Shown here one piece after another: positions 12,968 through 58,966 of a DNA stretch of 64,000 bases. The notes under the pieces were generated by a model. That model made no database searches. It was not told the DNA's origin and was given only the letters and a program-made list of their open reading frames with translations. Source of the stretch: an uncultured Eubacteriales bacterium (GTDB lineage: Bacteria; Bacillota; Clostridia; Peptostreptococcales; Anaerovoracaceae); assembly GCA_902798745.1 (NCBI GenBank), contig CADBXM010000007.1:11317-75316 (forward strand), in the 5' to 3' direction. Position numbers and translations under genes: made by a program. How positions within the stretch are numbered: the stretch's first letter is position 1; every line of letters begins with the position of its first letter.

Positions 12968-13402
12968 ATGACAATAGGATATACGACAGGAGTTTATGAT
13001 CTGTTCCACATAGGACATCTGAATCTTCTGAAAAACGCCAAGGGCATGTGTGACAAGCTCATAGTAGGCGTGACGGTGGACGAACTTGTCGAGTACAAGG
13101 GCAAACAGGCAATGATCCCGTTTGAGGACAGGATAGAGATCGTCAGGAGCATCAAATACGTAGACGCGGCGGTCCCTCAGTATGACATGGACAAGCTTGC
13201 TGCATGCAAAAAGCTTGGAGCAACATACCTCTTTGTCGGCGATGACTGGTATGCCACAGAGAAATGGCAGGAATACGAGAAAGAATTCAACAAAGAAGGT
13301 ATCAAGATCATCTACTTCCCTTACACAAAGGGCGTATCCTCGACAAAGATATCGGAAGCGTTGAAGGCGGTCCGCAAGTCTTCTCTGCAGGATGTGAAAT
13401 AA
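12968..13402 (+). CDS. tagD: Glycerol-3-phosphate cytidylyltransferase
   Basis: GYTTGVYDLFHIGHLNLLKNAK (HxGH motif) and YTKGVSSTKI (RTxGISTT-like motif). The protein is 144 aa. A GAGAGGAGA ribosome-binding site is present. Confidence 0.85.
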   Translation: MTIGYTTGVYDLFHIGHLNLLKNAKGMCDKLIVGVTVDELVEYKGKQAMIPFEDRIEIVRSIKYVDAAVPQYDMDKLAACKKLGATYLFVGDDWYATEKWQEYEKEFNKEGIKIIYFPYTKGVSSTKISEALKAVRKSSLQDVK

Positions 13403-17346: not shown

Positions 17347-18183
17347 ATGACAGAAACACAGAAAGTCATACTTGATATTTTCAAAATCACCGCAGACATC
17401 TGCGAGAGGCACGATATACCGTACTTTGCAATAGGCGGCACCTGCCTTGGCGCGGTCCGCCACAAAGGATTCATTCCCTGGGATGATGACATAGATATAG
17501 CGATACCGATACAGCACTTTGATGAATTCTGGGACATCGCCGAAAAGGAATTGCCTCCGGGATATGAGACGTATACGTGCAAAAAAGTAAGGACATACGA
17601 TAAGATCTTCGGAAAGATCCACAATACGGAGACCGCATATATAGAGACAAAAGAGATCGGATACTATAAGGCCTATAAAGGGATTTTTGTCGATATCATG
17701 CCGATCTCGGCGATACCCGACACTGGGGCTGAAAGAGAAGCCTTTTATGATAGTGTGCTGAATTATAAAAAGCTGAACTATTACCGGAGATTCCCATACA
17801 AGGTGGTTCAGTCGAAGCGCAAAAGGACAAGGCTCAAATGGATGCTCATGAGAGTGGCCGGCATGTTCGGCGGATTCGACTATTATTCCGATAAGTGGAT
17901 GGACCTGCTGCGTGCCCATCCTTTTGGCAGCTCATCTCTGACAGGGTATTCGTGGTCCAAAAACATCAGAAAATACACCTTCCCGGCAGACTGTTTCGCA
18001 AATACAGTCGATATGCCATTTGAAGATACAACTATCAAATGCCCGGCGCTTTACGACAAGTATCTGACTCTTCAGTTCGGTGATGACTACATGGAATTGC
18101 CACCTGAAGAAAAGCGGGCGCCACATCGCACTGAAGTGGTAGATGTGAATAAGTCGTACAAGCAATACATACCGTCAAAGTAA
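17347..18183 (+). CDS. LicD-family phosphotransferase (polyol-phosphate / phosphocholine transferase family)
   Basis: YFAIGGTCLGAVRHKGFIPWDDDIDIAIP is the diagnostic LicD nucleotidyltransferase-fold motif. A GAGGGGA ribosome-binding site is present. Confidence 0.8.
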   Translation: MTETQKVILDIFKITADICERHDIPYFAIGGTCLGAVRHKGFIPWDDDIDIAIPIQHFDEFWDIAEKELPPGYETYTCKKVRTYDKIFGKIHNTETAYIETKEIGYYKAYKGIFVDIMPISAIPDTGAEREAFYDSVLNYKKLNYYRRFPYKVVQSKRKRTRLKWMLMRVAGMFGGFDYYSDKWMDLLRAHPFGSSSLTGYSWSKNIRKYTFPADCFANTVDMPFEDTTIKCPALYDKYLTLQFGDDYMELPPEEKRAPHRTEVVDVNKSYKQYIPSK

Positions 18184-44551: not shown

Positions 44552-44635
44552 CAACAACTCCTCGATTTCTGATAATATAAGTATTATAGCATGAAAGATT
44601 ATAAAAAACGATAAATGAGCAGTGGGAGGAACATC

Positions 44636-45514
44636 ATGAGAGTAGCGGTCACAGGGGCAAGCGGATATCTGGGGAGGAACTTCATGTCGATGTACATGGG
44701 CTCGTGCGACTTCGTTGCCCTAACAAGGAACGCGTCTTCTGCCGGACTCATGGAAGGCGTAGAGTATCGTGAGAGCGACTACAGCGAAGAGAGCCTTAAG
44801 GAAGTGCTGAGCGGCTGCGATGCGGTGGTACACCTGGCATACGCGATGGCAACAAAGGAAAATGAGCAGGCGGGCATGGAGGCATATCGCTCGAGCATGG
44901 AAGTGACTGAAAGAGTCTTCGAGACGGCCCTGAGCCTTGGTATCAAAAATATGGTGTTTGCCTCGAGCAGGCTGGTCTATCCGAGCCGCTCCGAGGAGCC
45001 GTTCACAGAGGACAGTCCGCTTGACCCGGGGACATCCTACGGAAAAAGCAAAGTCATGATGGAGCAGCTATGCGAGGAGCTCAATCAAAAGGGAGCGCGC
45101 ATCAAGGCGCTTAGATTCGGGCAGATAATAGGAGCGGACATGAAGGTGAGAGGCATGTTCCAGATATTTATGGAAAAGGCCGCGAATAACGAGCCGCTCA
45201 CCCTTATCGGAAGCGACGTAAGAGACTACATTTACGTAAAGGATGCATGCGGGGCCATAATGGCAGCGCTTCAGCACCCGGAAGCTTCGGGCATCTTCAA
45301 CATAAGCATGGGACGCGGAACAGACAACAGAGCGATGGCCGAAGGCATCATCAGCGAAATAGGGAGTTCGTCGGAAATATTGATCTCCGAAACAGGCAAT
45401 ACGAAGACACCTGACCGCATAGTGCTGGACACCCGAAAGGCCCAAAAACAATTAAGTTTCAGCTGTGAGTATGATACAATTAATAAGATAGTCAGAGACG
45501 TTTCGGCCTGCTGA
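44636..45514 (+). CDS. NAD(P)-dependent sugar epimerase/dehydratase/reductase (SDR extended family)
   Basis: GGGAGG ribosome-binding site. MRVAVTGASGYLGRNF contains the GxxGxxG motif, and SYGKSK is the YxxxK catalytic motif. Confidence 0.8.
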   Translation: MRVAVTGASGYLGRNFMSMYMGSCDFVALTRNASSAGLMEGVEYRESDYSEESLKEVLSGCDAVVHLAYAMATKENEQAGMEAYRSSMEVTERVFETALSLGIKNMVFASSRLVYPSRSEEPFTEDSPLDPGTSYGKSKVMMEQLCEELNQKGARIKALRFGQIIGADMKVRGMFQIFMEKAANNEPLTLIGSDVRDYIYVKDACGAIMAALQHPEASGIFNISMGRGTDNRAMAEGIISEIGSSSEILISETGNTKTPDRIVLDTRKAQKQLSFSCEYDTINKIVRDVSAC

Positions 45515-45538
45515 GACAGGCGGAGAAATCAACATATC

Positions 45539-46660
45539 ATGGACAATAAAAAAGTACTGATCCTGGGCGCGGGAAACGGCCAGATCGAAGCAATCGAATA
45601 CTGCAAAGCTCAAGGGCTTTTTGTTGCGGGCTGCAGCTACACCAACACAGACAAAGGGATACCACTGCTTGACGATTTCCGTCAGTCCGACATAAAGGAC
45701 ATAGAGGCGGTTGCCGCATACGCGACAGACCTTGGCGCGGATGCAGTCTATTCTGTCGGCTCAGACCTCGCCATACCAACGGCAATGCGCGTGAGCGAGA
45801 TACTCGGGCTGCCTCACTTCATATCCTACAGGTCGGCAGAGCTCTGCCACTCAAAACACCTGATGCGTGAGGCACTGGGAAATGGCTTCACGGGCAACGT
45901 GGACTTCATCGTTTGCGAAACACTTGATGAGGCTCTTGGCTGGGAGGCATTCCCGGCAATGATGAAGCCAGTAGACTCGCAGGGGCAGAGAGGCTGCTTC
46001 AGGGTGGATTCGGCAGAGGACATACGCGAGCACTTTGAGGCCTCGCTCGACTACTCGGTATGCGGTAAGGTGATCATCGAATCATATATAGACGGGCCGG
46101 AGATATCCGTCAATTCATACAGGGCAAATGGCAAGACTGTGTTTGCCGTAGTGTCCGACCGCGAGAGCTTTGAGGAGTATCCGGGAGGCCTGCCGAAAAA
46201 ACACAGGATACCTTCACTGTTCGCCGGCGCGGAAGCCAGCGCGGAGGCTGAGGACATCGTGGACAAGGCTGCTGATAAGCTGGGCATAACAGACGGGCCG
46301 TGCTACTGCCAAATGAAGATCGGCACCGACGGCAAGCCGTATATCATTGAGATAGCCCCTAGGCTGGACGGCTGCCACATGTGGAATCTCATCAAGCACT
46401 GGTGCGGAGTCGATCTGCTGAGCGCCTGCTTCGATCACCTTCTCACGGGAGATCCGGGCATCGACCCGGTCGATGAGGAGCCTTCAGGCGGTATAGAGCT
46501 TGAATTCCTGAGCGAAAAGACCGGCGCGCCATTCGACCCGGACAAATACGATACATCGGGCGCGGAGTATGTCTGCCTGTATTATGAAGAGGGAGACGCC
46601 GTGTCAAAGGTAAACGGTTATTACGAGAAATGCGGATATATGATCCGCCGTACAAAATAG
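45539..46660 (+). CDS. Classical ATP-grasp carboxylate-amine ligase-like protein
   Basis: KKVLILGAGNGQIEAIEYCKAQG (pre-ATP-grasp Rossmann-like stretch), ...MMKPVDSQGQRGCFRVDS..., ...IIESYIDGPEISVNSY..., ...YIIEIAPRLDG. Confidence 0.65.
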   Translation: MDNKKVLILGAGNGQIEAIEYCKAQGLFVAGCSYTNTDKGIPLLDDFRQSDIKDIEAVAAYATDLGADAVYSVGSDLAIPTAMRVSEILGLPHFISYRSAELCHSKHLMREALGNGFTGNVDFIVCETLDEALGWEAFPAMMKPVDSQGQRGCFRVDSAEDIREHFEASLDYSVCGKVIIESYIDGPEISVNSYRANGKTVFAVVSDRESFEEYPGGLPKKHRIPSLFAGAEASAEAEDIVDKAADKLGITDGPCYCQMKIGTDGKPYIIEIAPRLDGCHMWNLIKHWCGVDLLSACFDHLLTGDPGIDPVDEEPSGGIELEFLSEKTGAPFDPDKYDTSGAEYVCLYYEEGDAVSKVNGYYEKCGYMIRRTK

Positions 46661-46709
46661 AGCGTACAAAAAAGAGTTATAGCAAATCGAAAGCAAGGGG
46701 GATGATATA

Positions 46710-48020
46710 GTGTCTATCCACAAGAAACTTAAAAACGTATATGTACTCTGGTACGTCCTCACACTCAAGAAGACGTTCGAAGGAGACCCTAAAAAGATCA
46801 AGGCGAAGCAGAACCGCGATATCCACAGGCTCATGAAGCGCGCCTATAAGATCCCATTCTATCGCAAGAAATTCGAAGAATCCGGAACGACTCCAGACGA
46901 TTACCACTGCGCTGAAGACCTCGTCAAATTCCCGCTGCTCACCAAGCCTGAACTGAGAAAGTGGATGCAGGACGAATGGGACAACCATCCGGAGATCCAC
47001 GACAAGGTCAATGTTCACGCTACCAGCGGATCATCGGGCGTTCCTCTTCGCGTGCTCTACTCTCAGAGAGAACAGGGCTGCAGCGACGCCAACTGGATCA
47101 GAGTGCTGATGGCCGCGGGCTATCATCCGTTCTTCGGCAAGATGTATTCGTTCCAGACAAGCCACAGGGACCCTAACGACAAGAGCAGGGATTCCTTTAT
47201 ACAGAAGTTCGGCGTGATGAGACGCAAAGTCGTTTCCGAGGATTATTGCGTGGGCGACGGCATTGCCGATACCATCAGGGACATCAACGAATACAAACCT
47301 GACATGATCTGCTTCAGGCGCAACTGCCTCGTGAGGATAGTAGCGTATGCCGAGCAGCACAACATGCCGGTGTGGAAGCCTAAACTGTACTGCCCAATAA
47401 GCGAGATGGTCGATGATGTCACAGTCAAGCTGCTGACAAAGACCCTCGGCGACGGACTGATCGACGCGTACGGCATATCCGAGATGGGAAGCAGCATCTA
47501 CAAATTCCCGGGCAATGATTTCTATTATCTTGCCAACGACATCGCCGCCGCGAATGTTTACGATGACAACGATCAGCCGGTAGACAACGGCAGACTCATT
47601 CTGACCGCGACTTACAAGAAAGACTACCCGCTCATCAATTACGATGTGCTCGACATCGTCACATCATACAAGAAGGACGGACTCAGATACTTCAAATCCA
47701 TCGAGGGCCGCATGAACGACCTTGTCAAACACGAGGGCGGAGCTGACTCATCCGCGCTTATGCTGATGAGGATCGCGAACAAGGTGGTCGGACTGTCGCA
47801 GTTCAGGTTCGTGGAGGAGACCTATCACGACATGCTGATCGAGCTCGCTCCTGACCCAAACAACACCTCGATGACCAGAGAAGAGATAGAGAACCACTTT
47901 ATCACCGAAGTCAAAAAGCTTTACGGTGATGAGTTCAGGATCAGGGTCGAATGGAAAGACACCCTGCCGCCTGAAGAGACGGGAAAGCAGAAGTGCTTCA
48001 TATGCAAAGTGAAAGATTAA
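46710..48020 (+). CDS. Adenylate-forming enzyme of the PaaK/CapK/F390-synthetase type
   Basis: GTG start 8 nt after AGGGGGA. ...YKIPFYRKKFEESG...FPLLTKPELR...HATSGSSGVPLRV (AMP-binding T-S-G-S-S-G loop). Confidence 0.65.
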   Translation: MSIHKKLKNVYVLWYVLTLKKTFEGDPKKIKAKQNRDIHRLMKRAYKIPFYRKKFEESGTTPDDYHCAEDLVKFPLLTKPELRKWMQDEWDNHPEIHDKVNVHATSGSSGVPLRVLYSQREQGCSDANWIRVLMAAGYHPFFGKMYSFQTSHRDPNDKSRDSFIQKFGVMRRKVVSEDYCVGDGIADTIRDINEYKPDMICFRRNCLVRIVAYAEQHNMPVWKPKLYCPISEMVDDVTVKLLTKTLGDGLIDAYGISEMGSSIYKFPGNDFYYLANDIAAANVYDDNDQPVDNGRLILTATYKKDYPLINYDVLDIVTSYKKDGLRYFKSIEGRMNDLVKHEGGADSSALMLMRIANKVVGLSQFRFVEETYHDMLIELAPDPNNTSMTREEIENHFITEVKKLYGDEFRIRVEWKDTLPPEETGKQKCFICKVKD

Positions 48021-48982
48021 GAGACCCTTACTTCGACAACTTAAGAGGCGCGCTTATATGCCTCGTGGTTGCCGGGCACTGTGCCAACCTGTATAAAGAC
48101 AGCAATGTTTATTGCTGGTATTTGTTCAACTTTATCTACGCCTTCCATATGCCTCTGTTCTTCTACATATCGGGCTACTTCAGCAAGAATGTGGAGAAGA
48201 CATATAGAAAAGCGTTCGAAGCGTTGATCATACCGGCGATACCTTTCGAATTGCTGTATTTCATAATGCATGTAGCGACCGGAGCAGACAATACGGAGCC
48301 GTTCCTGACTCCTGTATTTGCCTACTGGTTTTGCTTTGCGCTGTTCTTCTGCAGGGCGCTGCTGCCTTATCTCATCCGCCTGAGGTGGATCGTACCGATC
48401 ACCTTTATCCTGGCGCTTGCGATAGGCTTCAACCCGCAGATCAACGAATACATGACTTTATCGCGCTTCCTGTGTATGCTGCCGTTCTTCCTGCTCGGCT
48501 ATTACACGACACGCGAAAACATGGAGAGGATACGCAGCATCAATACCGGGCTGGCGGCAGCGCTTGGAGTAGCAGCGATCGCAGCGGTCTTTGCCCTGCT
48601 TAAGTTTACGGATCTGGCCCCGGGATTCACACTGAGGGCACCGTACGAAACCCCGATGGGCGTGCTGGTCAGAGCTTTCCAGTTTGTTGTTGCGATACTG
48701 ATTTCCCTTGCGGTGATGAAGCTGATCCCGCAGGGCAAATCTTATTTAGCTACTATAGGACAGAGGACATTGCAGATCTATTTCCTGCATTTCTACTTCA
48801 CGACAGCGATCAAAATGGTGAACCCTGTCGCTGAAGCATCTGTTCTCAATTTCGTATTGATGCTGGTCGCCGCGCCGGTGATCACGGTCATACTGGCGAC
48901 TCCGCCGGTGACTAAGGTCTACGACGCGCTGATAAACGCGGTCAAGAAGCTGTTGTTAAAAAGAGAAACAGGAGAAGTATAA
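47993..48982 (+). CDS. Acyltransferase-3 family membrane O-acyltransferase
   Basis: PYFDNLRGALICLVVAGHC... followed by about 10 hydrophobic helices, which is the typical Acyl_transf_3 N-terminus. The start is ambiguous (GTG at 47993 or ATG at 48002). It overlaps the preceding gene. Confidence 0.65.
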   Translation: MLHMQSERLRDPYFDNLRGALICLVVAGHCANLYKDSNVYCWYLFNFIYAFHMPLFFYISGYFSKNVEKTYRKAFEALIIPAIPFELLYFIMHVATGADNTEPFLTPVFAYWFCFALFFCRALLPYLIRLRWIVPITFILALAIGFNPQINEYMTLSRFLCMLPFFLLGYYTTRENMERIRSINTGLAAALGVAAIAAVFALLKFTDLAPGFTLRAPYETPMGVLVRAFQFVVAILISLAVMKLIPQGKSYLATIGQRTLQIYFLHFYFTTAIKMVNPVAEASVLNFVLMLVAAPVITVILATPPVTKVYDALINAVKKLLLKRETGEV

Positions 48983-48984
48983 GT

Positions 48985-50283
48985 ATGTATATAGATCCGG
49001 GTACCGGAAGTATGCTGTTTACGATCCTTGTCGGATCGATCGGTGCCGGCGCTTACGCGCTGAGGGACCGCATGCTTAAGTTGAGGTTTTATATGAGCGG
49101 CGGAAGGGCCGAGAAGAACACGGGCGACAACCCCGACTATGTCATCTTCTCAGACAGCAAGAGATACTGGAATGTGTTCGAGCCGATTTGCGATGAGTTT
49201 GAGGCGAGAGAGACAGAGATCATCTACATGACATGTTCGGAAGACGACCCTGCTCTCAGCAAGGACTACAAATTCGTTAAGTGCGAGTTTATCGGTGAGG
49301 GCAACAAGGCTTTCGCTAAGCTCAACAGCCTGAAGGCGGATATCCTGCTGTCCACGACACCGAGCCTGGATGTCTTTTACTGGAAGCGTTCCAAGGACGT
49401 CAAATGGTATGTGCATATCCCGCACGCATGCGACGACCTCACAAAATACAGAATGTTCGGCATCGACTACTACGATGCCATATTATGCTCAGGCGACTAT
49501 CAGATCAACGAGGTGAGGAAGCTCGAAGAGCTGAGGAACCTGCCTCAGAAGGAGATGGTGAATACCGGGCTCACATACCTCGACACGATGAAGGCAAGGC
49601 TCGAAAAGACCGGCGGGCGCAAGACCGCGGGCAGGCCTAAAAGCGAGATCAATGTTCTGCTGGCACCTTCGTGGGGACCGAGCTCCATATTCAACCGCTT
49701 CGGGACCGAAATGATAGACAGCCTTCTGTCGACCGGATACCACATCATCGTAAGGCCTCACCCTCAGTCATTCACCAGCGAAAAGGAGATGATAGAGGGC
49801 ATAATGGCAAAGTATCCTGACAGCGACAGACTGGAGTGGAACAGGGACAACGACAACTTCGATGTGCTCAACAGATCGGACATACTGATATCCGACTTCT
49901 CGGGCGTGGTGTACGACTTCTGCCTTGTCTTCGACAAACCGGTGATCTACGCCGACGTCTCGTTCGACGACAGCCCGTATGACGCGTGCTGGATCAAAGA
50001 GAAACCATGGTCGCTGTCCACCCTTGAGAAGGTGGGTACGCAGCTCACAAAGGACAATATAGGAAACATCGGGCAGGTGATAGACACCTGCATCAATGAT
50101 GAGAGATTCCAGAAGGCAAGGGACGAAGCCCGCGAGGAAGCCTGGGTCTGCATGGGAGAGAGCGCAAAGCTCGTAGCAGACTATCTCATCGTCAAGCACG
50201 CCGAGTTGGAAAGGCTTGCTGAAGAGGAACAGGCTGTCAACGTAAAGGAAAAGAAAAAAGAAAAAGTAAAGGAACCGGCGTAG
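48985..50283 (+). CDS. TagF-family polyol-phosphate transferase-like protein with an N-terminal membrane helix
   Basis: CAGGAGAAG ribosome-binding site. N-terminal GTGSMLFTILVGSIGAGAYAL. ...VLLAPSWGPSS...IVRPHPQS...ILISDFSGVVYDFCLVFDKPVIYAD. Confidence 0.6.
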   Translation: MYIDPGTGSMLFTILVGSIGAGAYALRDRMLKLRFYMSGGRAEKNTGDNPDYVIFSDSKRYWNVFEPICDEFEARETEIIYMTCSEDDPALSKDYKFVKCEFIGEGNKAFAKLNSLKADILLSTTPSLDVFYWKRSKDVKWYVHIPHACDDLTKYRMFGIDYYDAILCSGDYQINEVRKLEELRNLPQKEMVNTGLTYLDTMKARLEKTGGRKTAGRPKSEINVLLAPSWGPSSIFNRFGTEMIDSLLSTGYHIIVRPHPQSFTSEKEMIEGIMAKYPDSDRLEWNRDNDNFDVLNRSDILISDFSGVVYDFCLVFDKPVIYADVSFDDSPYDACWIKEKPWSLSTLEKVGTQLTKDNIGNIGQVIDTCINDERFQKARDEAREEAWVCMGESAKLVADYLIVKHAELERLAEEEQAVNVKEKKKEKVKEPA

Positions 50284-50295
50284 AAAGGCAGCACA

Positions 50296-53079
50296 ATGAC
50301 CATTTTAGGAATGTTATATAAATTACTGATAGGCCCTCTGGAACTGCTTTTCGAGGTGATATTCGTCATCGCCAACGGAAAGGTCAGCAATCCGGCCTAT
50401 GCCATCATCGCGCTCAGCCTTGCGATGAACTTTCTGGTGCTCCCGCTGTACAAGCGGGCGGACGCCATGCAGGCAGAAGAGCGTGACCGTGAGGCGAGGA
50501 TGCGCCCGTGGATCGACCACATAAAGAAGACCTTCAAGGGCGATGAGCGCTTCATGATGCTCCAGGCGTATTACAGACAAAACGACTACAAGCCTACGCA
50601 CGCGTTCAAGGGCTCGGTATCGCTGTTCCTTGAGATCCCATTCTTTATCGCGGCGTACAGATTCCTCTCGGGGCTCGAAACTCTGAAGGGCATATCCTTC
50701 GGACCTCTCACAGACCTGGGAGCGCCTGACGCTCTGATCAACATCGGCGGAACAACAATAAACTTCCTTCCGATATTGATGACTCTTATCAACGTCGTAG
50801 CTGCCGCTGTATACATGAAGGGCATGCCTCTCAAAAATAAGATAACGACTTATGGTATCGCGGCGATCTTCCTGGTACTGCTGTACAACTCTCCGGCGGG
50901 ACTGGTATTCTACTGGACTCTGAACCAGATATTCTCGCTGATCAAAAACGTATTCTATAAGTTCAAGGACCCTGCCAAGGTGCTCAGGATACTGGCATCC
51001 GTTACAGGCATCGTGCTTGTGGCTCTGGTGATAATCGCTCATCCATTCAGGAGCATTCGGGTGCAGGTCATGGTGATCGTGCTTCTTCTCTGCCTGCAGC
51101 TGCCTATTCTGCTCGCGTATCTCAGGAAAAGAGGCAACAGCCTTGAGATCAAAGCGGATATCAAGCAGAGCAATCTGCTCTTCCGCGCGTCGACCATACT
51201 GTTGACCATACTTACGGGTATACTGTGCCCATCAGCCGTGATCGGCGACAGTACCGAGGAATTCATCAATCTTAATAATTACGTATCGCCAAACTGGTTC
51301 GTGGTAAGCGCGTTCCTGCTGGCAGCCGGTACGTTCATCATATGGTTTGGCATTTTCTACGGATTGGCGGATACGGGCGGCAAGCATGTGCTCAGTCTCA
51401 TCACTGCCATGATCGCGGTGATCGGTCTGGTGAATTACATGCTGTTCAGCAAGGATTACGGTAACCTCTCGGCTGAACTTCAGTACGACGAAAATCCATC
51501 GATATCCGGCAAGATGATACTCATCAATCTGGTGGTCGCGCTCGCGATCATGCTGGTGGTCGCCCTGATCTGGAAGTTCAAGGCGTCTCTGCTCGGCGGA
51601 GGCATCGCGGTAGTCTGCGTAGCGCTTCTTATAATGAGCGCGCTCAACATCGTATCGATCAATAAGGTGCTCGCGGCTGACAGCGACATGATAAAAAGCG
51701 CTTCAGTAGCCGAAGAGCCCGAGCTTGATCTCAGCAAGAACGGAAAGAACGTAGTCGTCATCATGATGGACAGGATGGCCGGCTTCTACATCCCTTACAT
51801 ACTGGAGGAAAAGCCTGAACTGAAGGAACAGTTCGACGGCTTCACATATTACGAAAATGTTGTGTCGCACGCGACTACAACTAACGAAGGTGCGCCGGCT
51901 CTGTATGGCGGATACGACTATACGCCGTTTGAGATCGATAAGCGCTCCGATGAATCGCTGAAGAAAAAGAACGACGAAGCTCTGAAGGTGATGCCTGAGA
52001 TGTTCGGAGGTTCGGGCTATGATGTGACTATCTGCGAGCCGACATACGCCGGATACAAGCAGATCCCGGATCTCTCGATATTCGACGATCACCCTGAATA
52101 CAAGACATTCAATCTGAACGGAAAGTTCTCGCTTGAAGAGTATGGATATGTCACAAGCAAGGATTCAAGTTCTGTGACTATGTTCCGAAACTTCTTCTGC
52201 TACAGCATATTCAGGATAGTTCCATCGGCGCTGCAGAAGATGGTTTACTCAAAAGGCACCTACAACTCATCCGTTACCAGCGGCTTTGTTATAGGCCACA
52301 CCATGGATGGCTCATCGAAGTCACACGGATTCGTTAGGAACTTCATGAGGACATACGCAGTTCTGTGCCATCTCAATGATATAACCGTGACATCGAAGGG
52401 AGGCAAAGGCAACTTCATAATGATGTCGAATGACACCTCGCACGAGCCTATGCTTCTGCAGGAACCGGCATATGTACCGGCGCTGGATGTAGACAACACG
52501 GAATACGATGAGGAGCACCCGACACGCGTCGACGCTGACGGAAATGTTCTGGAGTTCGAAAACGACGAGACCCGCAAGCATTATCACGTCAACATGGCGA
52601 CCATGCTGAAACTCGGTGAGTGGTTCGACTATCTCAAGAAGGAAGGCGTGTACGACAACACCCGCATCATCATCGTTTCAGACCACGGTACTCCTTACAG
52701 ATTTACCGGGCCGTATTCCCTCTATTATACCGATGAAGATACCGGCGAGCAGAAGAACCTCGATATCCGCAGGTTCCAGTGCACTCTGATGTATAAGGAC
52801 TTCGATGCGGAGGGCATCACGGTCGAAGAGGAATTCACCACGAATGCCGACGTGCCGGCACTCGCGACTGAAGGTTTAGTCAAGGATCAGGTCAATCCGT
52901 TTACCGGAAATCGTCTGGCAAAAGGAAATAGTAGTCTGCTGCCGATCAGACTCGTGAGGACAAGTGAGCACAACATAAGAAAGAACAACGGCAACACGTT
53001 TATCCCGGGCAATATATTCGAGCTCAGCGGAGACCCGCATGTCGTCGATAACTGGGAATATGTCGGTAACGATTACTAA
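50296..53079 (+). CDS. Fusion protein: YidC/Oxa1-like insertase domain, polytopic membrane region, and an alkaline-phosphatase-superfamily (LtaS/sulfatase-like) ectodomain
   Basis: The N-terminus matches the YidC core pattern: ...LVLPLYKRADAMQAEE...MRPWIDHIKKTFKGDERFMMLQAYYRQNDYKP...LEIPFFIAAYRFL...FGPLTDLGAPD...FLPILMTLIN...PAGLVFYWTLNQIFSLI. The C-terminus is AP-superfamily-like: VVVIMMDRMAG...SHATTTNEGAPAL...MSNDTSHEP...IIIVSDHGT. Confidence 0.6.
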   Translation: MTILGMLYKLLIGPLELLFEVIFVIANGKVSNPAYAIIALSLAMNFLVLPLYKRADAMQAEERDREARMRPWIDHIKKTFKGDERFMMLQAYYRQNDYKPTHAFKGSVSLFLEIPFFIAAYRFLSGLETLKGISFGPLTDLGAPDALINIGGTTINFLPILMTLINVVAAAVYMKGMPLKNKITTYGIAAIFLVLLYNSPAGLVFYWTLNQIFSLIKNVFYKFKDPAKVLRILASVTGIVLVALVIIAHPFRSIRVQVMVIVLLLCLQLPILLAYLRKRGNSLEIKADIKQSNLLFRASTILLTILTGILCPSAVIGDSTEEFINLNNYVSPNWFVVSAFLLAAGTFIIWFGIFYGLADTGGKHVLSLITAMIAVIGLVNYMLFSKDYGNLSAELQYDENPSISGKMILINLVVALAIMLVVALIWKFKASLLGGGIAVVCVALLIMSALNIVSINKVLAADSDMIKSASVAEEPELDLSKNGKNVVVIMMDRMAGFYIPYILEEKPELKEQFDGFTYYENVVSHATTTNEGAPALYGGYDYTPFEIDKRSDESLKKKNDEALKVMPEMFGGSGYDVTICEPTYAGYKQIPDLSIFDDHPEYKTFNLNGKFSLEEYGYVTSKDSSSVTMFRNFFCYSIFRIVPSALQKMVYSKGTYNSSVTSGFVIGHTMDGSSKSHGFVRNFMRTYAVLCHLNDITVTSKGGKGNFIMMSNDTSHEPMLLQEPAYVPALDVDNTEYDEEHPTRVDADGNVLEFENDETRKHYHVNMATMLKLGEWFDYLKKEGVYDNTRIIIVSDHGTPYRFTGPYSLYYTDEDTGEQKNLDIRRFQCTLMYKDFDAEGITVEEEFTTNADVPALATEGLVKDQVNPFTGNRLAKGNSSLLPIRLVRTSEHNIRKNNGNTFIPGNIFELSGDPHVVDNWEYVGNDY

Positions 53080-53090
53080 AAGATACTATC

Positions 53091-54809
53091 ATGCTGGAAA
53101 GAGACACTAATAGATCAAACGCAAAAGCACTCATCATAGCACTGTCAGTAAATATACTGATATTGCTGGTTTGCTTTTTCATTTTCTATCCTGTATTCGA
53201 AACAAACGACGACAACGGGCTTATCGCGATCGCGAGCGGCATAAGGGGAGTTCGCGAGGCGCATATAGTGCATACGAACATCCTGGTCGGGAAACTGATC
53301 ACATCGCTCTACGCGGTCGCGCCGGCGATTCAGTGGTGGAGCGTGCTCCAGCTGCTCCTGCTGTTCATCTCTTTCTTCTTTGTCACGTATATCTTCATCC
53401 GGAGCGACACCGGCATCGCGAGGGTCCTGTTCGTGACGGCCGTTACATCATTCTTCGCTTATGAAGGCTATGTTCGCATCCAGTACACAAAGAGCGCGGG
53501 CATATACAGCGCGGCAGGGCTCATGCTTGTGTTCTACGGGCTGCTTCAGGAGAAGCCTGAGAAGAAGTTTATAATTCCCGGCATGCTGCTCGCTCTTGCA
53601 GGTTCGTTCTACAGGACGCAGCAGTTCGCCTGCATAGTGGCTATCTTCGCGTCCATGGTCGTATATTTGATCATGCGCTGCGTCCAGGATTTTGAGAAGC
53701 CTAAAAAACGCATAATCACAGCTCTTGCGGTCGGCGCCATACTGCTGCTCGCCGCGGGCGGATTCAGAGTATACGACAGGAGCCAGTATAAGGACCCTGA
53801 CTGGGCGGCTTATCTTGAGTTCGACAAGTACCGCACCGAGGTGCTCGACTACAGGATCCCTGATTATGACGAGCACAAGGAAGAGTACAACGCTATAGGC
53901 ATAGACGAGACAGCCTACAAGCTCATGAAGAGCTGGACCTTCCAGGACCCTGAGAAGTTCACTGCCGAAACATTCAAAAAGATATCCGATCTGAACGAGA
54001 AACGGACGATAGACGCGGCGTTCGCGAAGAAATTCCTCAAGAGATTCGCGAAGGGACTAAGAGATGAAGCAGTGTTCCTCTGCTTCGCCGTCATAGCGAT
54101 AGGATGGCTGCTCACCGGCAGACGCAAGGCCCGCAACTGGGTGTGCCTCATCATCATGGCCTTGGCCATATTGGCGATGAACGCATACCTCTATTACGCG
54201 GGAAGGTTCATGATACGCAGGGTGGATGTAGGCATATGGTTTGCCGCCTCACTCATAATGATGTACCAGTGCTTCGCCGACAAGCCTGTTAAGGACAAAG
54301 CGGAGGCGGTCGGCGGGAGCGCCAAAGGCGGTGTGCTGAAGAATGCAGTGCTTGTTGTGCTCTGCCTGGCGATCATCGCCGTATTCGCCTTTGAGATGCC
54401 GTGGCGAAGCGGCTTCAGATCTGTGGTAGAGGAGAAAGCCGCAGCCGCCGAAGTCGAAAGAAGCGCTATAGAAAAGATCGGAGGCGACAAAGATCACCTC
54501 TATCTGACAAAGGTGGGCGTCCTCGGATTCAGCGAGGTCTATGGAGTGATGGACCCTCAGCCTTACAAGATAGCGGACAACATCTATCCTCTTGGAGGAT
54601 GGGGAGCGGCGACTCCGGCTTACCTGAGCGTGCTCAGAAATTACGGCGTGAACAATCCGTTCCGCGACATGATCGGTAACGACAAAGTCTATCTCATAGA
54701 CAATAAGATAAACGACACACTGGCATATCTCAGAAAATGGTATAAGCCTGACGCTGAAGCCGAACTGGTGGATGAGGTAGAAGGCCATAAAATATACAGG
54801 ATAAAGTAA
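53091..54809 (+). CDS. Large polytopic membrane protein, unknown function (candidate extracytoplasmic polymer-modifying enzyme)
   Basis: A 572-aa protein with about 10 hydrophobic segments and a soluble C-terminal region. I recognised no diagnostic motif. It lies between the YidC-LtaS-like fusion and a GT-C-like protein. Confidence 0.4.
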   Translation: MLERDTNRSNAKALIIALSVNILILLVCFFIFYPVFETNDDNGLIAIASGIRGVREAHIVHTNILVGKLITSLYAVAPAIQWWSVLQLLLLFISFFFVTYIFIRSDTGIARVLFVTAVTSFFAYEGYVRIQYTKSAGIYSAAGLMLVFYGLLQEKPEKKFIIPGMLLALAGSFYRTQQFACIVAIFASMVVYLIMRCVQDFEKPKKRIITALAVGAILLLAAGGFRVYDRSQYKDPDWAAYLEFDKYRTEVLDYRIPDYDEHKEEYNAIGIDETAYKLMKSWTFQDPEKFTAETFKKISDLNEKRTIDAAFAKKFLKRFAKGLRDEAVFLCFAVIAIGWLLTGRRKARNWVCLIIMALAILAMNAYLYYAGRFMIRRVDVGIWFAASLIMMYQCFADKPVKDKAEAVGGSAKGGVLKNAVLVVLCLAIIAVFAFEMPWRSGFRSVVEEKAAAAEVERSAIEKIGGDKDHLYLTKVGVLGFSEVYGVMDPQPYKIADNIYPLGGWGAATPAYLSVLRNYGVNNPFRDMIGNDKVYLIDNKINDTLAYLRKWYKPDAEAELVDEVEGHKIYRIK

Positions 54810-54818
54810 CGACTTGAC

Positions 54819-56522
54819 ATGGATCGGGACAGACATCTGAAACCCTCTGAAAAATCAAATAATGGTATGTTAGCAACATGGCTGATAATTATCAGCTTGG
54901 TGATTTTGGGTATAGTTTACTGTCTGCCTCTGTTTTTTACAGACGGGATCCACAAAGTCGACGACACCACATTCCACGTCGGCAGGCTTGTAGGTCTCAG
55001 CAATGTATTCACCTCGCCTGTCAACTTCAACAGCTTCGGCAACAACGGCCTGATGGTCAACATCTTTTACCCGTGGCTCACCATGTACCCTATGTACATC
55101 CTGTACAAGCTCACGGGAAGCTATGTACTGGGATACAAACTGTACTATGTTCTCCTGTCGGTCGTGACGATGCTGCTGTCATATTGGTCGATGCTTAAGA
55201 TCACCAAGAACAAAGCCGGGGCGTATGTGTTTGCTATCATATACGCGTTTTCGAGCTACAGGTTCGCAGACGTGTTCAACAGGGCGGCTCTCGGAGAGTC
55301 GATAGCCCTGGCGTTCCTGCCATTGGTCCTCCTCGGCATATACAAGATCTGCTTTGAAAACTATAAAGAGTGGCGCAAACTCGCGGCCGGGATGACTCTG
55401 CTGGCATACTCTCATATGCTTTCGCTTGTCATGGCTACGGCGTTCACGGGAGTCCTGTTCCTGATCGCGATCATCACTCAGGACAACAGAGGCAAGAGGT
55501 TTGTCTCCATGGTGAAGGCAGCTTGTCTCTCACTTGCGCTTTCGGCCGCCATGATAGTTCCGATGGCGGAGCAGATGCTCAAAAACGATTTATTCACTCC
55601 GTCGGGAGACGGGGGTACGATGTCAAAGTCGGCGTACAGCCTGGCAGAGATAATCAAATTCACAGTTATTAACAACCCTGCGGGCAGAGGCGTTGGAGCC
55701 ATGTCTCTTGCGGCATTCCTGATGACGATAGTGCTGCTGATCTGCGGCATCATACTGCATGGCCGCTTTACGACCGATGACAAGTTCGTCATCTGGCTGC
55801 TGCTGATAGGGATCGTCATGTTTGTCGCCACAGCCGACATACTTCCATGGCATTATCTCGGGGACAACACTCCTCTTTCGACGATACAGTTTGTCTGGAG
55901 GATGAACGCCTATCCGACGCTCGCGTTCGCCGCGGCCTTTTCGATATTGCTGTCAAAGGCAATGAGTTCCGATAGGAAGAATGTTATAATACTAATTACA
56001 ATTGTCACCTTGGCATTCGCCGGGGTGCAGTACTACACTCTGTATGCGCGGAACGCGGAGATCGTGAGTCACGATCGCATAGCGGAGGAGGACGTCGCGA
56101 CCTGGGCTTCGGGCAATGTCGACTACACTCCGTACCAGGCATGGGAATACCGCGAAGAACACAGCGACAATATGCAGTACATGTATATTGACGGAAAAGA
56201 GATCGCCAAGAGCCCGGTGACAAAGGAAAGTGGAACATACTATGTTCAGGATCTCGGCGGTTCGGGCAAGGACAGGACAGCGGACATACCGGTCTTCAAA
56301 TTCTACGGAGAGAAGGTGCTGCTGAACGAAGAAGCTGTCGAATCAGACTTATCCGCCCGCGGAACGACGGAAGTCAAGGTCCCGCGTTCCAAAGAAGCGG
56401 TAGTTACGATATCTTATGCCTACACGACTCTCGCGAGAGCATCATGGGCATTTTCGATAATTATATTAATTCTCAGTATCATAGTTGCCATGCGCGCCAA
56501 GCCTGAAAAGCAGGAAGGCTGA
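54819..56522 (+). CDS. GT-C-fold-like polytopic membrane glycosyltransferase (YfhO / PTPS-related-membrane-protein-like)
   Basis: After the first transmembrane helix comes ...TDGIHKVDDTTFHVGRLVGLSNVF...NNGLMVNIFYPWL, a D-x-x-FH-x-x-R first-loop motif typical of these GT-C proteins. About 12 transmembrane helices and a C-terminal ectodomain with a final transmembrane helix follow. The assignment is tentative. Confidence 0.45.
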   Translation: MDRDRHLKPSEKSNNGMLATWLIIISLVILGIVYCLPLFFTDGIHKVDDTTFHVGRLVGLSNVFTSPVNFNSFGNNGLMVNIFYPWLTMYPMYILYKLTGSYVLGYKLYYVLLSVVTMLLSYWSMLKITKNKAGAYVFAIIYAFSSYRFADVFNRAALGESIALAFLPLVLLGIYKICFENYKEWRKLAAGMTLLAYSHMLSLVMATAFTGVLFLIAIITQDNRGKRFVSMVKAACLSLALSAAMIVPMAEQMLKNDLFTPSGDGGTMSKSAYSLAEIIKFTVINNPAGRGVGAMSLAAFLMTIVLLICGIILHGRFTTDDKFVIWLLLIGIVMFVATADILPWHYLGDNTPLSTIQFVWRMNAYPTLAFAAAFSILLSKAMSSDRKNVIILITIVTLAFAGVQYYTLYARNAEIVSHDRIAEEDVATWASGNVDYTPYQAWEYREEHSDNMQYMYIDGKEIAKSPVTKESGTYYVQDLGGSGKDRTADIPVFKFYGEKVLLNEEAVESDLSARGTTEVKVPRSKEAVVTISYAYTTLARASWAFSIIILILSIIVAMRAKPEKQEG

Positions 56523-56552
56523 GGACGTGAACGGCAAACCGGAAGAAAGCTT

Positions 56553-57881
56553 ATGAAAAAAGTAATCACATACGGAACATACGATATGATGCACGTCGGT
56601 CATATCAATCTGCTCAAAAACGCCAAGGCACTCGGCGACTATCTTATCGTCGGCGTAACGTCTGATGAGTTCGACATTTCGAGGGGCAAAATAGATGTCC
56701 GTCAGTCGCTCACCGAGAGGATCAACGCCGTGCGCGAGACAGGCCTTGCGGACGAGATCATCGCGGAGGAGTACGAAGGCCAGAAGATCGCCGACATAAT
56801 AAAGTATGACGTAGACATCTTCACCGTCGGTTCGGACTGGGTCGGAAAGTTCGACTACCTGAAAGACTTCTGTCAGGTGGTATATCTGCCGCGCACCGAA
56901 GGCATATCGAGTACACAGATAAGGGAAGAGTCGAACAAGACAGTAAGGCTCGGAGTCTATGGCCACAAAGAGCCGGCTGGCCGGGTCGTAGATGAGACAG
57001 CTTTTGTCAGCGGCATCAAAGCGTCTTCGGTCTACTCGGAGGACGCCGAGGCGGGGAAAGCCCTGGCAGAGAAGAAATCGATCGAGGCATGCGGCAGTGT
57101 CGAAGAGTTTTACGATTCATGCGACGCCGTCTACATCAATGCGAATATCAATGAAAGAGCAGATCTTATAAAGGACGCGCTCAAAAACGGCAAGCATGTG
57201 CTCTGCGAGGGACCGCTTTCAAATGATGAAAAAGCAACCTCCGAATGCATAGAACTCGCGAAGGAGAAAAAACTCGTCCTCTTCGACGCGATCAAGACGG
57301 AGTTCTTCCCGGGATACAAACATCTCGAGCTTCTGATAAAGAGCGGAAAGCTCGGAGAGATCAAGGACATAGACGTTTCGTTCAGCCAGCAGGACGCTTC
57401 CCAGAATTACGATGAAATGACCAGATATGAGGGCAGCATCTATGACATGTGCGGATTCATCTTCCTGCCTATATTCCATCTGCTGGGCACTGACTTTGAA
57501 AGCATCGACTTCTATTCAAGTCTTAACTCGAACGGAGCGGATATATATACGCGCGGGCTCATCAAGTTCAGCAACGCCATCGCGTCCTTCAGGACCGGGC
57601 TCGGCATCAAGACCGAGGGCCAGCTCATCATAACGGGAACGAAGGGATACCTGTACGTGCCTGCGCCATGGTGGAAGACCGACTACTTCGAGATAAGGTT
57701 TGAAGACCTCAGAGATACGAAGAAATACTTCTGGCAGTATGAAGGCGAAGGCTTCAGGTATGAGATGATCGAATTCCTTCGCAGGATAAATACGGAAAAA
57801 TATGAACCGGACTTCTCGCGCTCACTTGCCACGGCGAAAGCGCTTGAGGCCTTCAATGATCACAGAGAGAATGTCTTTTAG
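56553..57881 (+). CDS. Fusion of a TagD-like cytidylyltransferase with a Gfo/Idh/MocA-like domain
   Basis: The N-terminus is ITYGTYDMMHVGHINLLKNAK...LPRTEGISSTQIR (both cytidylyltransferase motifs). The C-terminus is VRLGVYG...DAVYINANINERADLIKDALKNGKHVLCEGPLS..., Gfo/Idh/MocA-like, but the EKP motif reads EGP. Confidence 0.7.
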   Translation: MKKVITYGTYDMMHVGHINLLKNAKALGDYLIVGVTSDEFDISRGKIDVRQSLTERINAVRETGLADEIIAEEYEGQKIADIIKYDVDIFTVGSDWVGKFDYLKDFCQVVYLPRTEGISSTQIREESNKTVRLGVYGHKEPAGRVVDETAFVSGIKASSVYSEDAEAGKALAEKKSIEACGSVEEFYDSCDAVYINANINERADLIKDALKNGKHVLCEGPLSNDEKATSECIELAKEKKLVLFDAIKTEFFPGYKHLELLIKSGKLGEIKDIDVSFSQQDASQNYDEMTRYEGSIYDMCGFIFLPIFHLLGTDFESIDFYSSLNSNGADIYTRGLIKFSNAIASFRTGLGIKTEGQLIITGTKGYLYVPAPWWKTDYFEIRFEDLRDTKKYFWQYEGEGFRYEMIEFLRRINTEKYEPDFSRSLATAKALEAFNDHRENVF

Positions 57882-57898
57882 GAGAAACGGAGGACAGA

Positions 57899-58966
57899 AT
57901 GGGATATTACGTAGACGAACATGTAAAGAATACCGAGAGGGTCTTTCCGGGCCAGGGAAGATACGGGAAAAAGAGATATGACATGAATGAGAACCCGGAA
58001 GGTCTCCCAAAGGAATTCGTTGACGGAGTCCTCAAGGAGATCACGCCTGAATTTCTCAGCATCTATCCTGAGCCTGACAGATTCCTCAGAAAATACGCGG
58101 AGTTCCTGGGCTGCGGCGTCAAGTTCGAAAACCTCGTAGCGACGAACGGCTCGGATATGTCGATCAGATATGTACTGGAAACATTCGGCGAAGAGGGCAA
58201 AGGCGTCGTTACTGTCAGCCCTTCGTTTGAGATGTACTGGGTCAACTGCTCTATCCTTGGGCTTAAGCATGTTCCTGTTACATACGAGGATGACATGACT
58301 ATCTCGATAGACAAGATACTCGGAGCTATCGATGAGGATACGAGGATAGTGGTGTTGCTCAATCCGAACAACCCTATAGGCAACGTGTATACCGATGACG
58401 ATGTAGAGAAAGTGATCGCCAAGGCAAAGGAAGTCGGCGCTATAGTCGTTATCGATGAGGCATATCATTACTTCTGCGAGAAGACCTTCCTTCCATACGC
58501 AATGTCAGAAGACAACGTGATCGTGCTGCGGACTTTCTCTAAGCTAATGTCAATTGCGGCATGCAGACTGGGTATCGCGATCGGTCATCCTCAGCTGATC
58601 CACTATATCAAAAACAGCAAGCTCACATTCGATGCCAACTCTATAGCGCTTCTGTTCGCGGAGAGGCTGATAGAGCGCCCGGATATAGTCGAAGACCTGA
58701 TCAAGATCGAAAAAGAAGGAAAGGCGCATATACTCAAGAGGCTTGATGAAGAGGGATACGAGGCCAGGGGAGGCCAGGGCAATTTCATTTTCGTGAAGCC
58801 GAAGAAAAACGCGAAAGAACTGGCAAAGGAGCTTGAGGAAAAATACGACGTGCTTGTTCACGCTTACGGAAATCCTCTTCTGAAGGACTTTATCAGGGTA
58901 ACAACAGGTTCGAAAGAATCGATGGATGTGTTCCTCGAAGCGTTTTTCAAGGCAGATACACTGTAA
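57899..58966 (+). CDS. Class I/II PLP-dependent aminotransferase (HisC-like)
   Basis: GGAGAAACGGAGG ribosome-binding site. ...LNPNNPIGN..., ...IDEAYHYF..., ...RTFSKLMSIAACRLGIAIG (PLP-lysine motif). Confidence 0.75.
   Translation: MGYYVDEHVKNTERVFPGQGRYGKKRYDMNENPEGLPKEFVDGVLKEITPEFLSIYPEPDRFLRKYAEFLGCGVKFENLVATNGSDMSIRYVLETFGEEGKGVVTVSPSFEMYWVNCSILGLKHVPVTYEDDMTISIDKILGAIDEDTRIVVLLNPNNPIGNVYTDDDVEKVIAKAKEVGAIVVIDEAYHYFCEKTFLPYAMSEDNVIVLRTFSKLMSIAACRLGIAIGHPQLIHYIKNSKLTFDANSIALLFAERLIERPDIVEDLIKIEKEGKAHILKRLDEEGYEARGGQGNFIFVKPKKNAKELAKELEEKYDVLVHAYGNPLLKDFIRVTTGSKESMDVFLEAFFKADTL

Follow-up and report, generated by a model that had tools for sequence, protein, structure and literature searches.

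What does a bacterium make with a cytidylyltransferase that is fused to an oxidoreductase-like domain and encoded next to a HisC-like aminotransferase? The question is raised by two genes at positions 56553 to 58966 of a 64,000-nucleotide stretch of DNA (the window) from an uncultured bacterium of the Anaerovoracaceae (contig CADBXM010000007.1). The first-pass annotation of this DNA proposed that the pair supplies an aminated or isomeric polyol activated with cytidine diphosphate (CDP). Of the two options, the aminated donor, with CDP-serinol as the likeliest compound, emerged as the best reading, and the isomeric donor, CDP-2-glycerol, did not hold up. The pair probably supplies some CDP-amino-alcohol for wall-glycan decoration. 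That the amino-alcohol is specifically serinol, made from dihydroxyacetone phosphate (DHAP), is an even call made by analogy.

In the proposed route, the HisC-fold pyridoxal 5'-phosphate (PLP) enzyme would transaminate a phosphorylated ketone of the R-CO-CH2-O-P shape of the HisC substrate, most likely glycolytic DHAP, to yield serinol phosphate. The TagD-like domain, recognizable by fold and motifs, would join cytidine triphosphate to serinol phosphate, its presumed substrate, giving CDP-serinol, which is shaped like CDP-glycerol. A TagF-like or LicD enzyme would then move phospho-serinol onto the polymer, and in some other genomes an N-acetyl or N-methyl group would be added. The NAD-binding and catalytic residues of the Gfo/Idh/MocA (Gfo) domain have been lost in this lineage, and the domain appears to be retained structurally. 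No study of the fusion module or of CDP-serinol was found in a literature search whose scope left out most subscription papers.

The fusion and the aminotransferase form a conserved module

The open reading frame (ORF) of the fusion (56553-57881, plus strand, 442 amino acids) is followed after 17 nt by that of the HisC-fold PLP enzyme (57899-58966, plus strand, 355 amino acids), with GGAGG at 57889-57893 between them. Pfam placed CTP_transf_like at residues 5 to 125, GFO_IDH_MocA at 156 to 243, and GFO C3 at 256 to 367 of the fusion and assigned the second ORF to Aminotran_1_2. All motifs quoted in the first-pass annotation were present in the translations (MHVGH, RTEGISST, LGVYGHKEPAG, and CEGP in the fusion; NPNNPIGN and FSKLMS in the aminotransferase), and its description of a cytidylyltransferase-Gfo fusion with an aminotransferase gene 17 nt downstream was borne out.

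The pair recurs as a unit in other loci, as that annotation had suggested looking for. Neighborhoods were compared in 80 loci of close relatives of the aminotransferase, with partner families counted in 79. The Gfo-bearing fusion was present in 63 of the 80, nearly always within ~150 bp and in either order. Nine other loci carried a LicC/PntC-type cytidylyltransferase with no Gfo domain, for which the best solved relatives were Tde1415 and LicC (best match, 6PD1). LicD or TagF genes occurred in 46 of 79 loci, LicD being the commonest neighbor (30/79). Fusions of the aminotransferase were also found, with LicD in P0241 and P0242, with a Gfo-free TagD-type domain in P0280, and with a methyltransferase in P0274. 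GNAT genes (3 loci) and methyltransferase genes (6 loci) among the neighbors are consistent with a free amine. The S-adenosylmethionine (SAM)-dependent methyltransferase adjoining or fused to this aminotransferase clade (L111:8114-8875, P0274, and P0337), for which no solved relative was found, is a candidate N-methyltransferase for the amino-alcohol phosphate.

The aminotransferase can itself be exchanged. The gene order in R. albus is LicD, class V aminotransferase, fusion, LicD, GNAT, LicD, and that in F. vincentii is LicD, class V, LicC-type; the class V enzyme pairs with the same two cytidylyltransferase choices as the HisC-fold enzyme. In a Bacteroidota clade, a short-chain dehydrogenase/reductase (SDR) occupies the partner slot, which fits a carbonyl precursor. 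Because the parts interchange and Gfo is sometimes absent, what stays constant is the combination of a PLP enzyme with a cytidylyltransferase and a phosphotransferase. The route can do without the Gfo domain, since LicC/PntC-type and Gfo-free TagD-type partners occur, and the fusion and aminotransferase are a conserved, uncharacterized module. The F. vincentii genes lie amid lipopolysaccharide-core-like genes of a 2.1-Mb record (L171; NZ_CP084075.1) that is labeled a plasmid and looks chromosomal.

The fusion is abundant, with at least 8000 sequence clusters, and every scored candidate was a homolog. Fusion loci were found in Bacteroidota, Bacillota, Fibrobacter, Akkermansia, and Actinomycetota; the closest relative (90%) came from the Anaerovoracaceae, in which 17 of 200 sampled genomes carry the fusion. 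In the 80 loci closest to the window fusion, the adjacent gene encoded an SDR (one type in 25 loci, a second type in 23), a class V aminotransferase (15 loci), or a HisC-like enzyme, and two of these almost never occurred together. LicD was nearby in 42 and TagF-like genes were nearby in 32 of the 80. Carriers that have been cultured include Laedolimicola, Anaerosacchariphilus hominis, and Acidaminococcus intestini, and Ruminococcus albus 7 has the class V form.

Several variant loci were observed. A clade (L003-L080) found mostly in Bacteroidota (e.g., L031:10001-11341 and the next gene, from Segatella bryantii) has a fully intact Gfo site with ETP in place of the EKP motif and an invariant K248. 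Its fusions overlap the SDR gene, often by ATGA, and the SDRs at this place are of two unrelated types; the clade could represent an undescribed route of CDP-polyol epimerization or reduction. Loci L198:8102-15697 and L203 have a decayed fusion in the neighborhood of a thiamine diphosphate-type enzyme and LicD genes. No aminotransferase was found in either genome, the L198 locus also holds an SDR and a canonical TagD, and the donor at these loci may be a different polyol phosphate. At L164:1-11335 and L167:7680-17691, the fusion and a class V enzyme adjoin LuxC/LuxE-like acyl-reductase genes and LicD; L164 also has a split transketolase, and L167 also has an iron alcohol dehydrogenase.

The HisC-fold enzyme and its likely substrate

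The closest solved relative of the aminotransferase was T. maritima HisC (E value, 2e-34). Its PLP site is intact (Y56, N157, D186, Y189, S214, K215, R223, and R333), in agreement with a fold type I enzyme. The phosphate-binding site is remodeled: R14 replaces a Tyr of HisC, and H321 replaces an Arg (H or K at 321 in the clade). The enzyme falls in a supported clade apart from true HisC and CobD, found mostly in glycan loci. At positions 291 and 292, two glycines replace near-invariant D and C residues (38/40 and 40/40 close homologs, respectively).

It is extremely unlikely that the second gene encodes a true histidinol-phosphate aminotransferase that lies in the locus by chance. TIGR01141 (hisC) was its best profile, at 234 bits, but this score is under the cutoff of 276.55. 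HisB and HisD were not found in the genome, which is 93% complete; the enzyme is thus not a working HisC, and a histidine role was ruled out. With its separate clade also considered, the protein is not the genuine, HisC-only enzyme against which the first-pass annotation had set its proposal. A CobD assignment likewise failed (TIGR01140, 139.7 bits versus a cutoff of 290.55; N-terminal HGG and TK motifs absent), and the genome's own CobD sits in its cobalamin cluster. Because PepM was not found in the genome, a phosphonate product, and with it a phosphonate role of the pair, was ruled out.

Alternatively, the enzyme could be a phosphoserine decarboxylase of the Cj1436 or CobD type, whose phosphoethanolamine would be converted to CDP-ethanolamine and, with the methyltransferase, to phosphocholine made de novo. 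Methyltransferases adjacent or fused to the aminotransferase, LicC-type and LicD partners from choline-pathway families, SerA and SerC in the window's own genome, and the inclusion of ethanolamine-phosphate cytidylyltransferase in the TagD fold (3ELB matches the fusion) all speak for this scheme, which we nevertheless judge unlikely. The protein matches HisC far more closely than it does decarboxylases of solved structure (6OUX, 8.5e-13; CobD, 1.6e-8), and it has neither the HGG nor the TK motif of the resident CobD. The class V aminotransferases, a family consisting mostly of transaminases, can take its place. Among 50 carrier genomes, SerC was not found in 13, and SerA was also not found in 10 of these. 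Transamination is favored by the relation to HisC, the class V substitute, the SDR in the same slot, and the carriers in which neither Ser enzyme was found; the same ten carriers favor DHAP over phosphoserine.

Precedents for serinol come from Campylobacter jejuni and from RtxA, the latter presumably a class V aminotransferase. C. jejuni Cj1437 converts DHAP to (S)-serinol phosphate, and the same organism offers a competing precedent, the decarboxylation of phosphoserine to ethanolamine phosphate (PMC11800397). RtxA's N-terminal domain forms serinol phosphate from DHAP; the first-pass annotation had ascribed serinol phosphate synthesis in both systems to HisC-like enzymes, a label that the RtxA review does not give (PMC3222319). 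In Campylobacter, Cj1437-like proteins, identified by their TupA and HAD neighbors and used here as stand-ins for Cj1437, are HisC-fold. The window enzyme is 25 to 26% identical to these context-identified proteins and lies on a separate branch; since it is not their ortholog, serinol is assigned by analogy. In C. volucris and C. novaezeelandiae (L358:2074-3775 and L359:7818-11796), a Cj1437-like aminotransferase, a HAD phosphatase, and a TupA-like ligase occur together, which suggests serinol-amide capsules.

The cytidylyltransferase domain

The TagD-fold cytidylyltransferase domain spans residues 1 to 126 (56553..56930, plus strand), as indicated by Pfam, motifs, and a TIGR01518 (TagD) match of 127.8 bits. 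The closest solved relative of the fusion is B. subtilis TagD (1COZ; E value, 1.8e-38). Residues H14, H17, R44, K46, E72, K78, D95, and W96 are intact, as is RTEGISS, and the fusion has the catalytic motifs of TagD (HxGH, RTEGIS(S/T), and K46). Its TIGR01518 scores, 123.7 to 127.8 bits, are under the equivalog cutoff of 165.4. R44 and E75 stand in the pocket where TagD has K44 and W74; the W74 position is a variable residue beside a near-invariant Y74 in the fusion family, and the differences from TagD (N41D, K44R, and loss of W74) are family-wide. A canonical TagD scoring above the cutoff sits on another contig of the same genome. Based on these three observations (score, pocket, and resident TagD), the domain is predicted from its sequence to be probably not a plain TagD. 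The genome holds three TagD-fold cytidylyltransferases in all, including those at window positions 12968-13402 and at G000:C2:196883-197257, as well as TarI/TarJ-like genes, a set suggestive of several distinct CDP-alcohol donors.

If the fusion were a plain glycerol-3-phosphate cytidylyltransferase whose appendage is dead, the product of the aminotransferase (free serinol or ethanolamine phosphate) could feed ATP-grasp amidoligases, as in Campylobacter. The intact catalytic motifs, the near-complete genomes with a fusion and neither aminotransferase, and the four ATPgrasp_ST genes and one ATP-grasp_4 gene of the window fit this scheme. A canonical TagD is already present, though, and elsewhere the aminotransferase occurs in fusions with LicD and with a cytidylyltransferase. 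ATPgrasp_ST was found in 0 of 79 homologous loci, with no recurring ATP-grasp or HAD cluster among the aminotransferase loci. We consider the scheme quite improbable. The related suggestion in the first-pass annotation, that the donor provides amine to the amidoligases of the locus, was not sustained by these counts, and the Campylobacter ligase takes free serinol phosphate rather than a CDP compound (PMC11800397).

The Gfo/Idh/MocA domain is probably inactive in the window copy

The Gfo/Idh/MocA-fold domain comprises residues 130 to 442 (56940..57881, plus strand). In the AlphaFold model (mean pLDDT, 91.5), it matches the complete folds of 3E9M and KijD10, with a template modeling (TM) score of ~0.86 to these targets. 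The two-domain fold of the family is present; the GxGxxA loop, the acid after strand 2, TPxxxH, the EKP lysine, and the D/E-x3-Y/H pair are not. The dinucleotide-binding loop reads GVYGHKEPA (56952..56978, plus strand), where intact relatives have GxxGCGRIA, in line with the weak glycine motif reported in the first-pass annotation. EGP (57207..57215, plus strand) occupies the EKP position, for which the family consensus is ETP or ESP. The missing lysine noted in that annotation was thus real but is not special to this gene, as the site is T in 118, G in 30, S in 24, and K in 6 of 199 homologs; EKP persists in deep-branching members. Alignment to dihydrodiol dehydrogenase equated family residues E298 and Y302 with the acid and tyrosine of its catalytic motif, residues that we take to be catalytic there. 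F302 (57456..57458, plus strand) fills the position of the catalytic tyrosine of dihydrodiol dehydrogenase and KijD10.

Seven marker sites (G139, D162, P198, H199, H202, D/E298, and Y302) were scored, with the EKP lysine considered apart. The window fusion retains one, D298, and no EKP lysine. All 48 SDR-linked fusions retain 7/7, the HisC-linked fusions have a median of 2/7, and the class V-linked fusions range from 1 to 7, seven of them with 7/7. Chains of the KijD10 mutants K102A and Y186F slightly outscored the wild type against the fusion protein. Close relatives show no indels in the domain, which remains subject to purifying selection; change in its Rossmann part is four to eight times faster than in the cytidylyltransferase domain, and residues 341 to 410 are about as conserved as the latter. 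Whether the domain is catalytic, which the first-pass annotation had left open, can be answered from these residues as probably not in this copy, and it is dispensable; it is probably kept as a structural, pseudo-enzyme part. A switch to an aminotransferase partner was considered as the cause of the decay but could not be established: the intact SDR-linked proteins are one clade, and two independent contrasts showed no difference. G198, with an SDR beside a decayed Gfo domain, is a counterexample to such a link.

The Gfo domain has a part in two other explanations. In the first, the module is the same but the amino-alcohol or the order of steps differs: glyceraldehyde 3-phosphate or a longer ketose phosphate is transaminated, or activation precedes amination (CDP-dihydroxyacetone to CDP-serinol), and Gfo is the ancestral oxidase of CDP-glycerol. 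Deep-branching fusions with canonical EKP, one of them beside a HisC-type aminotransferase (L124), the seven class V-linked fusions with all markers, and the additional basic residues that the aminotransferase clade has in its phosphate site are compatible with it, and pairs of a Gfo oxidase and an aminotransferase exist (GnnA/GnnB). The single marker residue of the window fusion and the LicC-type and Gfo-free TagD partners that occur without an oxidase argue against it, as does the HisC active-site geometry, which suits a ketone adjacent to CH2-O-P. We regard this amine or order of steps as a minor possibility.

The second, in which an active Gfo domain yields CDP-2-glycerol or another isomeric glycerol phosphate, is very unlikely. 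An oxidoreductase and a cytidylyltransferase do share one chain, and in the SDR-linked clade an intact Gfo domain and an SDR could isomerize or epimerize a polyol. In the window, Gfo is decayed, no SDR adjoins the fusion, and the aminotransferase would have no role. The pneumococcal route is not known to include an aminotransferase, and its gtp proteins are presumably not TagD/Gfo proteins. Pneumococci use three dedicated gtp genes and wchX (PMC1391919).

Candidate transferases and the surrounding locus

The fusion and aminotransferase genes are the last two of a co-directional run (44615-58966) with gaps of <50 nt: epimerase, ATP-grasp, CoA-ligase-like, acyltransferase, TagF-like, YidC-sulfatase, two membrane proteins, fusion, and aminotransferase. 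The TagF-like phosphotransferase of this run (48985..50283, plus strand; Pfam PF04464) is the best local candidate for the transfer step; in an unrelated locus (L137) a 54% homolog comes after this pair, and L143, L147, and L148 have YidC-TagF fusions (26 to 28%) ahead of the aminotransferase. A LicD-family gene (17347..18183, plus strand), 39 kb from the pair, is an alternative candidate. The wider locus contains TarI/TarJ-like genes, a second TagD-like gene, LicD, an ABC exporter, and more TagF-like genes.

YidC-like domains were seen coupled to phosphotransfer enzymes both in the window, where the YidC-sulfatase gene follows the TagF-like gene (48985-53079), and as YidC-TagF fusions in three other lineages (L143:5911-7980, L147:18-2345, and L148:6052-7923). 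Predicted promoter sites were not above shuffled sequence (19 versus 18.2). RNA-library contigs matched short stretches of both genes, although such contigs are no proof of transcription, and the best read matches were bovine gut metagenomes, from which the DNA may derive. Complex prediction for the fusion and aminotransferase scored 0.00 and was counted neither for nor against any reading.

Weighing the CDP-serinol route

Several observations weigh against the route through CDP-serinol. The genomes in which SerA and SerC were not found are incomplete metagenome bins of unreported completeness, two other carriers have assembly gaps at the SerA/SerC locus, and the window's own genome has both genes, so phosphoserine is available. 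Ethanolamine-to-choline chemistry accounts no less well for a methyltransferase with LicC and LicD, and the aminotransferase, at its low identity, is not orthologous to the Cj1437-like proteins. The association of Gfo decay with an aminotransferase partner is confounded by ancestry, and L124 is a HisC-linked fusion with a canonical EKP site. Decayed fusions also occur in 92 to 100% complete genomes in which neither aminotransferase type was found; the fusion is therefore not dedicated to amines, and its cytidylyltransferase domain may accept several substrates.

A broader proposal is that many gut members of Bacillota, Bacteroidota, Fibrobacter, and Fusobacterium produce CDP-serinol and place zwitterionic phospho-serinol on their surface glycans by using interchangeable parts, with Gfo as a pseudo-enzyme scaffold in many lineages. 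The parts would be two aminotransferase classes and two cytidylyltransferase folds, Gfo would be a once-active oxidase, and the amine would sometimes be N-acetylated or N-methylated. We put forward this proposal tentatively, at slightly less than even likelihood. Decorations such as phosphocholine, phosphoethanolamine, and aminoethylphosphonate influence surface charge, host recognition, and phage binding, and the module genes are widespread in gut and rumen bacteria. If the serinol route is correct, it would be a DHAP-derived decoration independent of choline uptake and would assign a role to thousands of proteins labeled "glycerol-3-phosphate cytidylyltransferase" or "histidinol-phosphate aminotransferase."

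Comparison with known systems

Compared with the TagD/TarD and TagB/TagF system, the module shares the fold, HxGH, RTEGISS, K46, and TagF-like neighbors; it differs in its sub-cutoff score, N41D, K44R, the lost W74, the appended Gfo domain, and the coexistence of a canonical TagD. The Gfo/Idh/MocA dehydrogenases (dihydrodiol dehydrogenase, KijD10, and 3E9M) have the same entire two-domain fold, whereas the window copy has lost the glycine loop, the EKP lysine, the TPH histidines, and the catalytic tyrosine. In the Cj1437/Cj1436/Cj1438/Cj1435 pathway, a PLP enzyme also makes serinol phosphate for a surface glycan, but there free serinol phosphate is amidated by a TupA-like ligase with a HAD phosphatase (PMC11800397), while a cytidylyltransferase and phosphotransferases are present here.

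Two other systems resemble the module in layout. LicABCD likewise combines a CDP-amino-alcohol donor with a LicD transferase, and a LicC-type enzyme can replace the fusion; the module has no choline kinase or transporter, and its amine apparently comes from central metabolism via a PLP enzyme. In PntC/AEPT (Tde1415), a PLP transaminase provides an amine-bearing substrate that the cytidylyltransferase activates, with LicD-like genes alongside (PMC6697681), and the LicC-type partners of the nine homologous loci match this structure (6PD1) best; here, PepM was not found in the genome, the aminotransferase is HisC-fold, and the cytidylyltransferase is TagD-fold. This analysis adds the form with the HisC-type enzyme, the exchangeability of parts, the family-wide state of the Gfo site, and the SerA/SerC comparison. 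The scheme matches LicC/LicD and PntC/AEPT and would thus represent a new donor in a known scheme and not a new kind of system.

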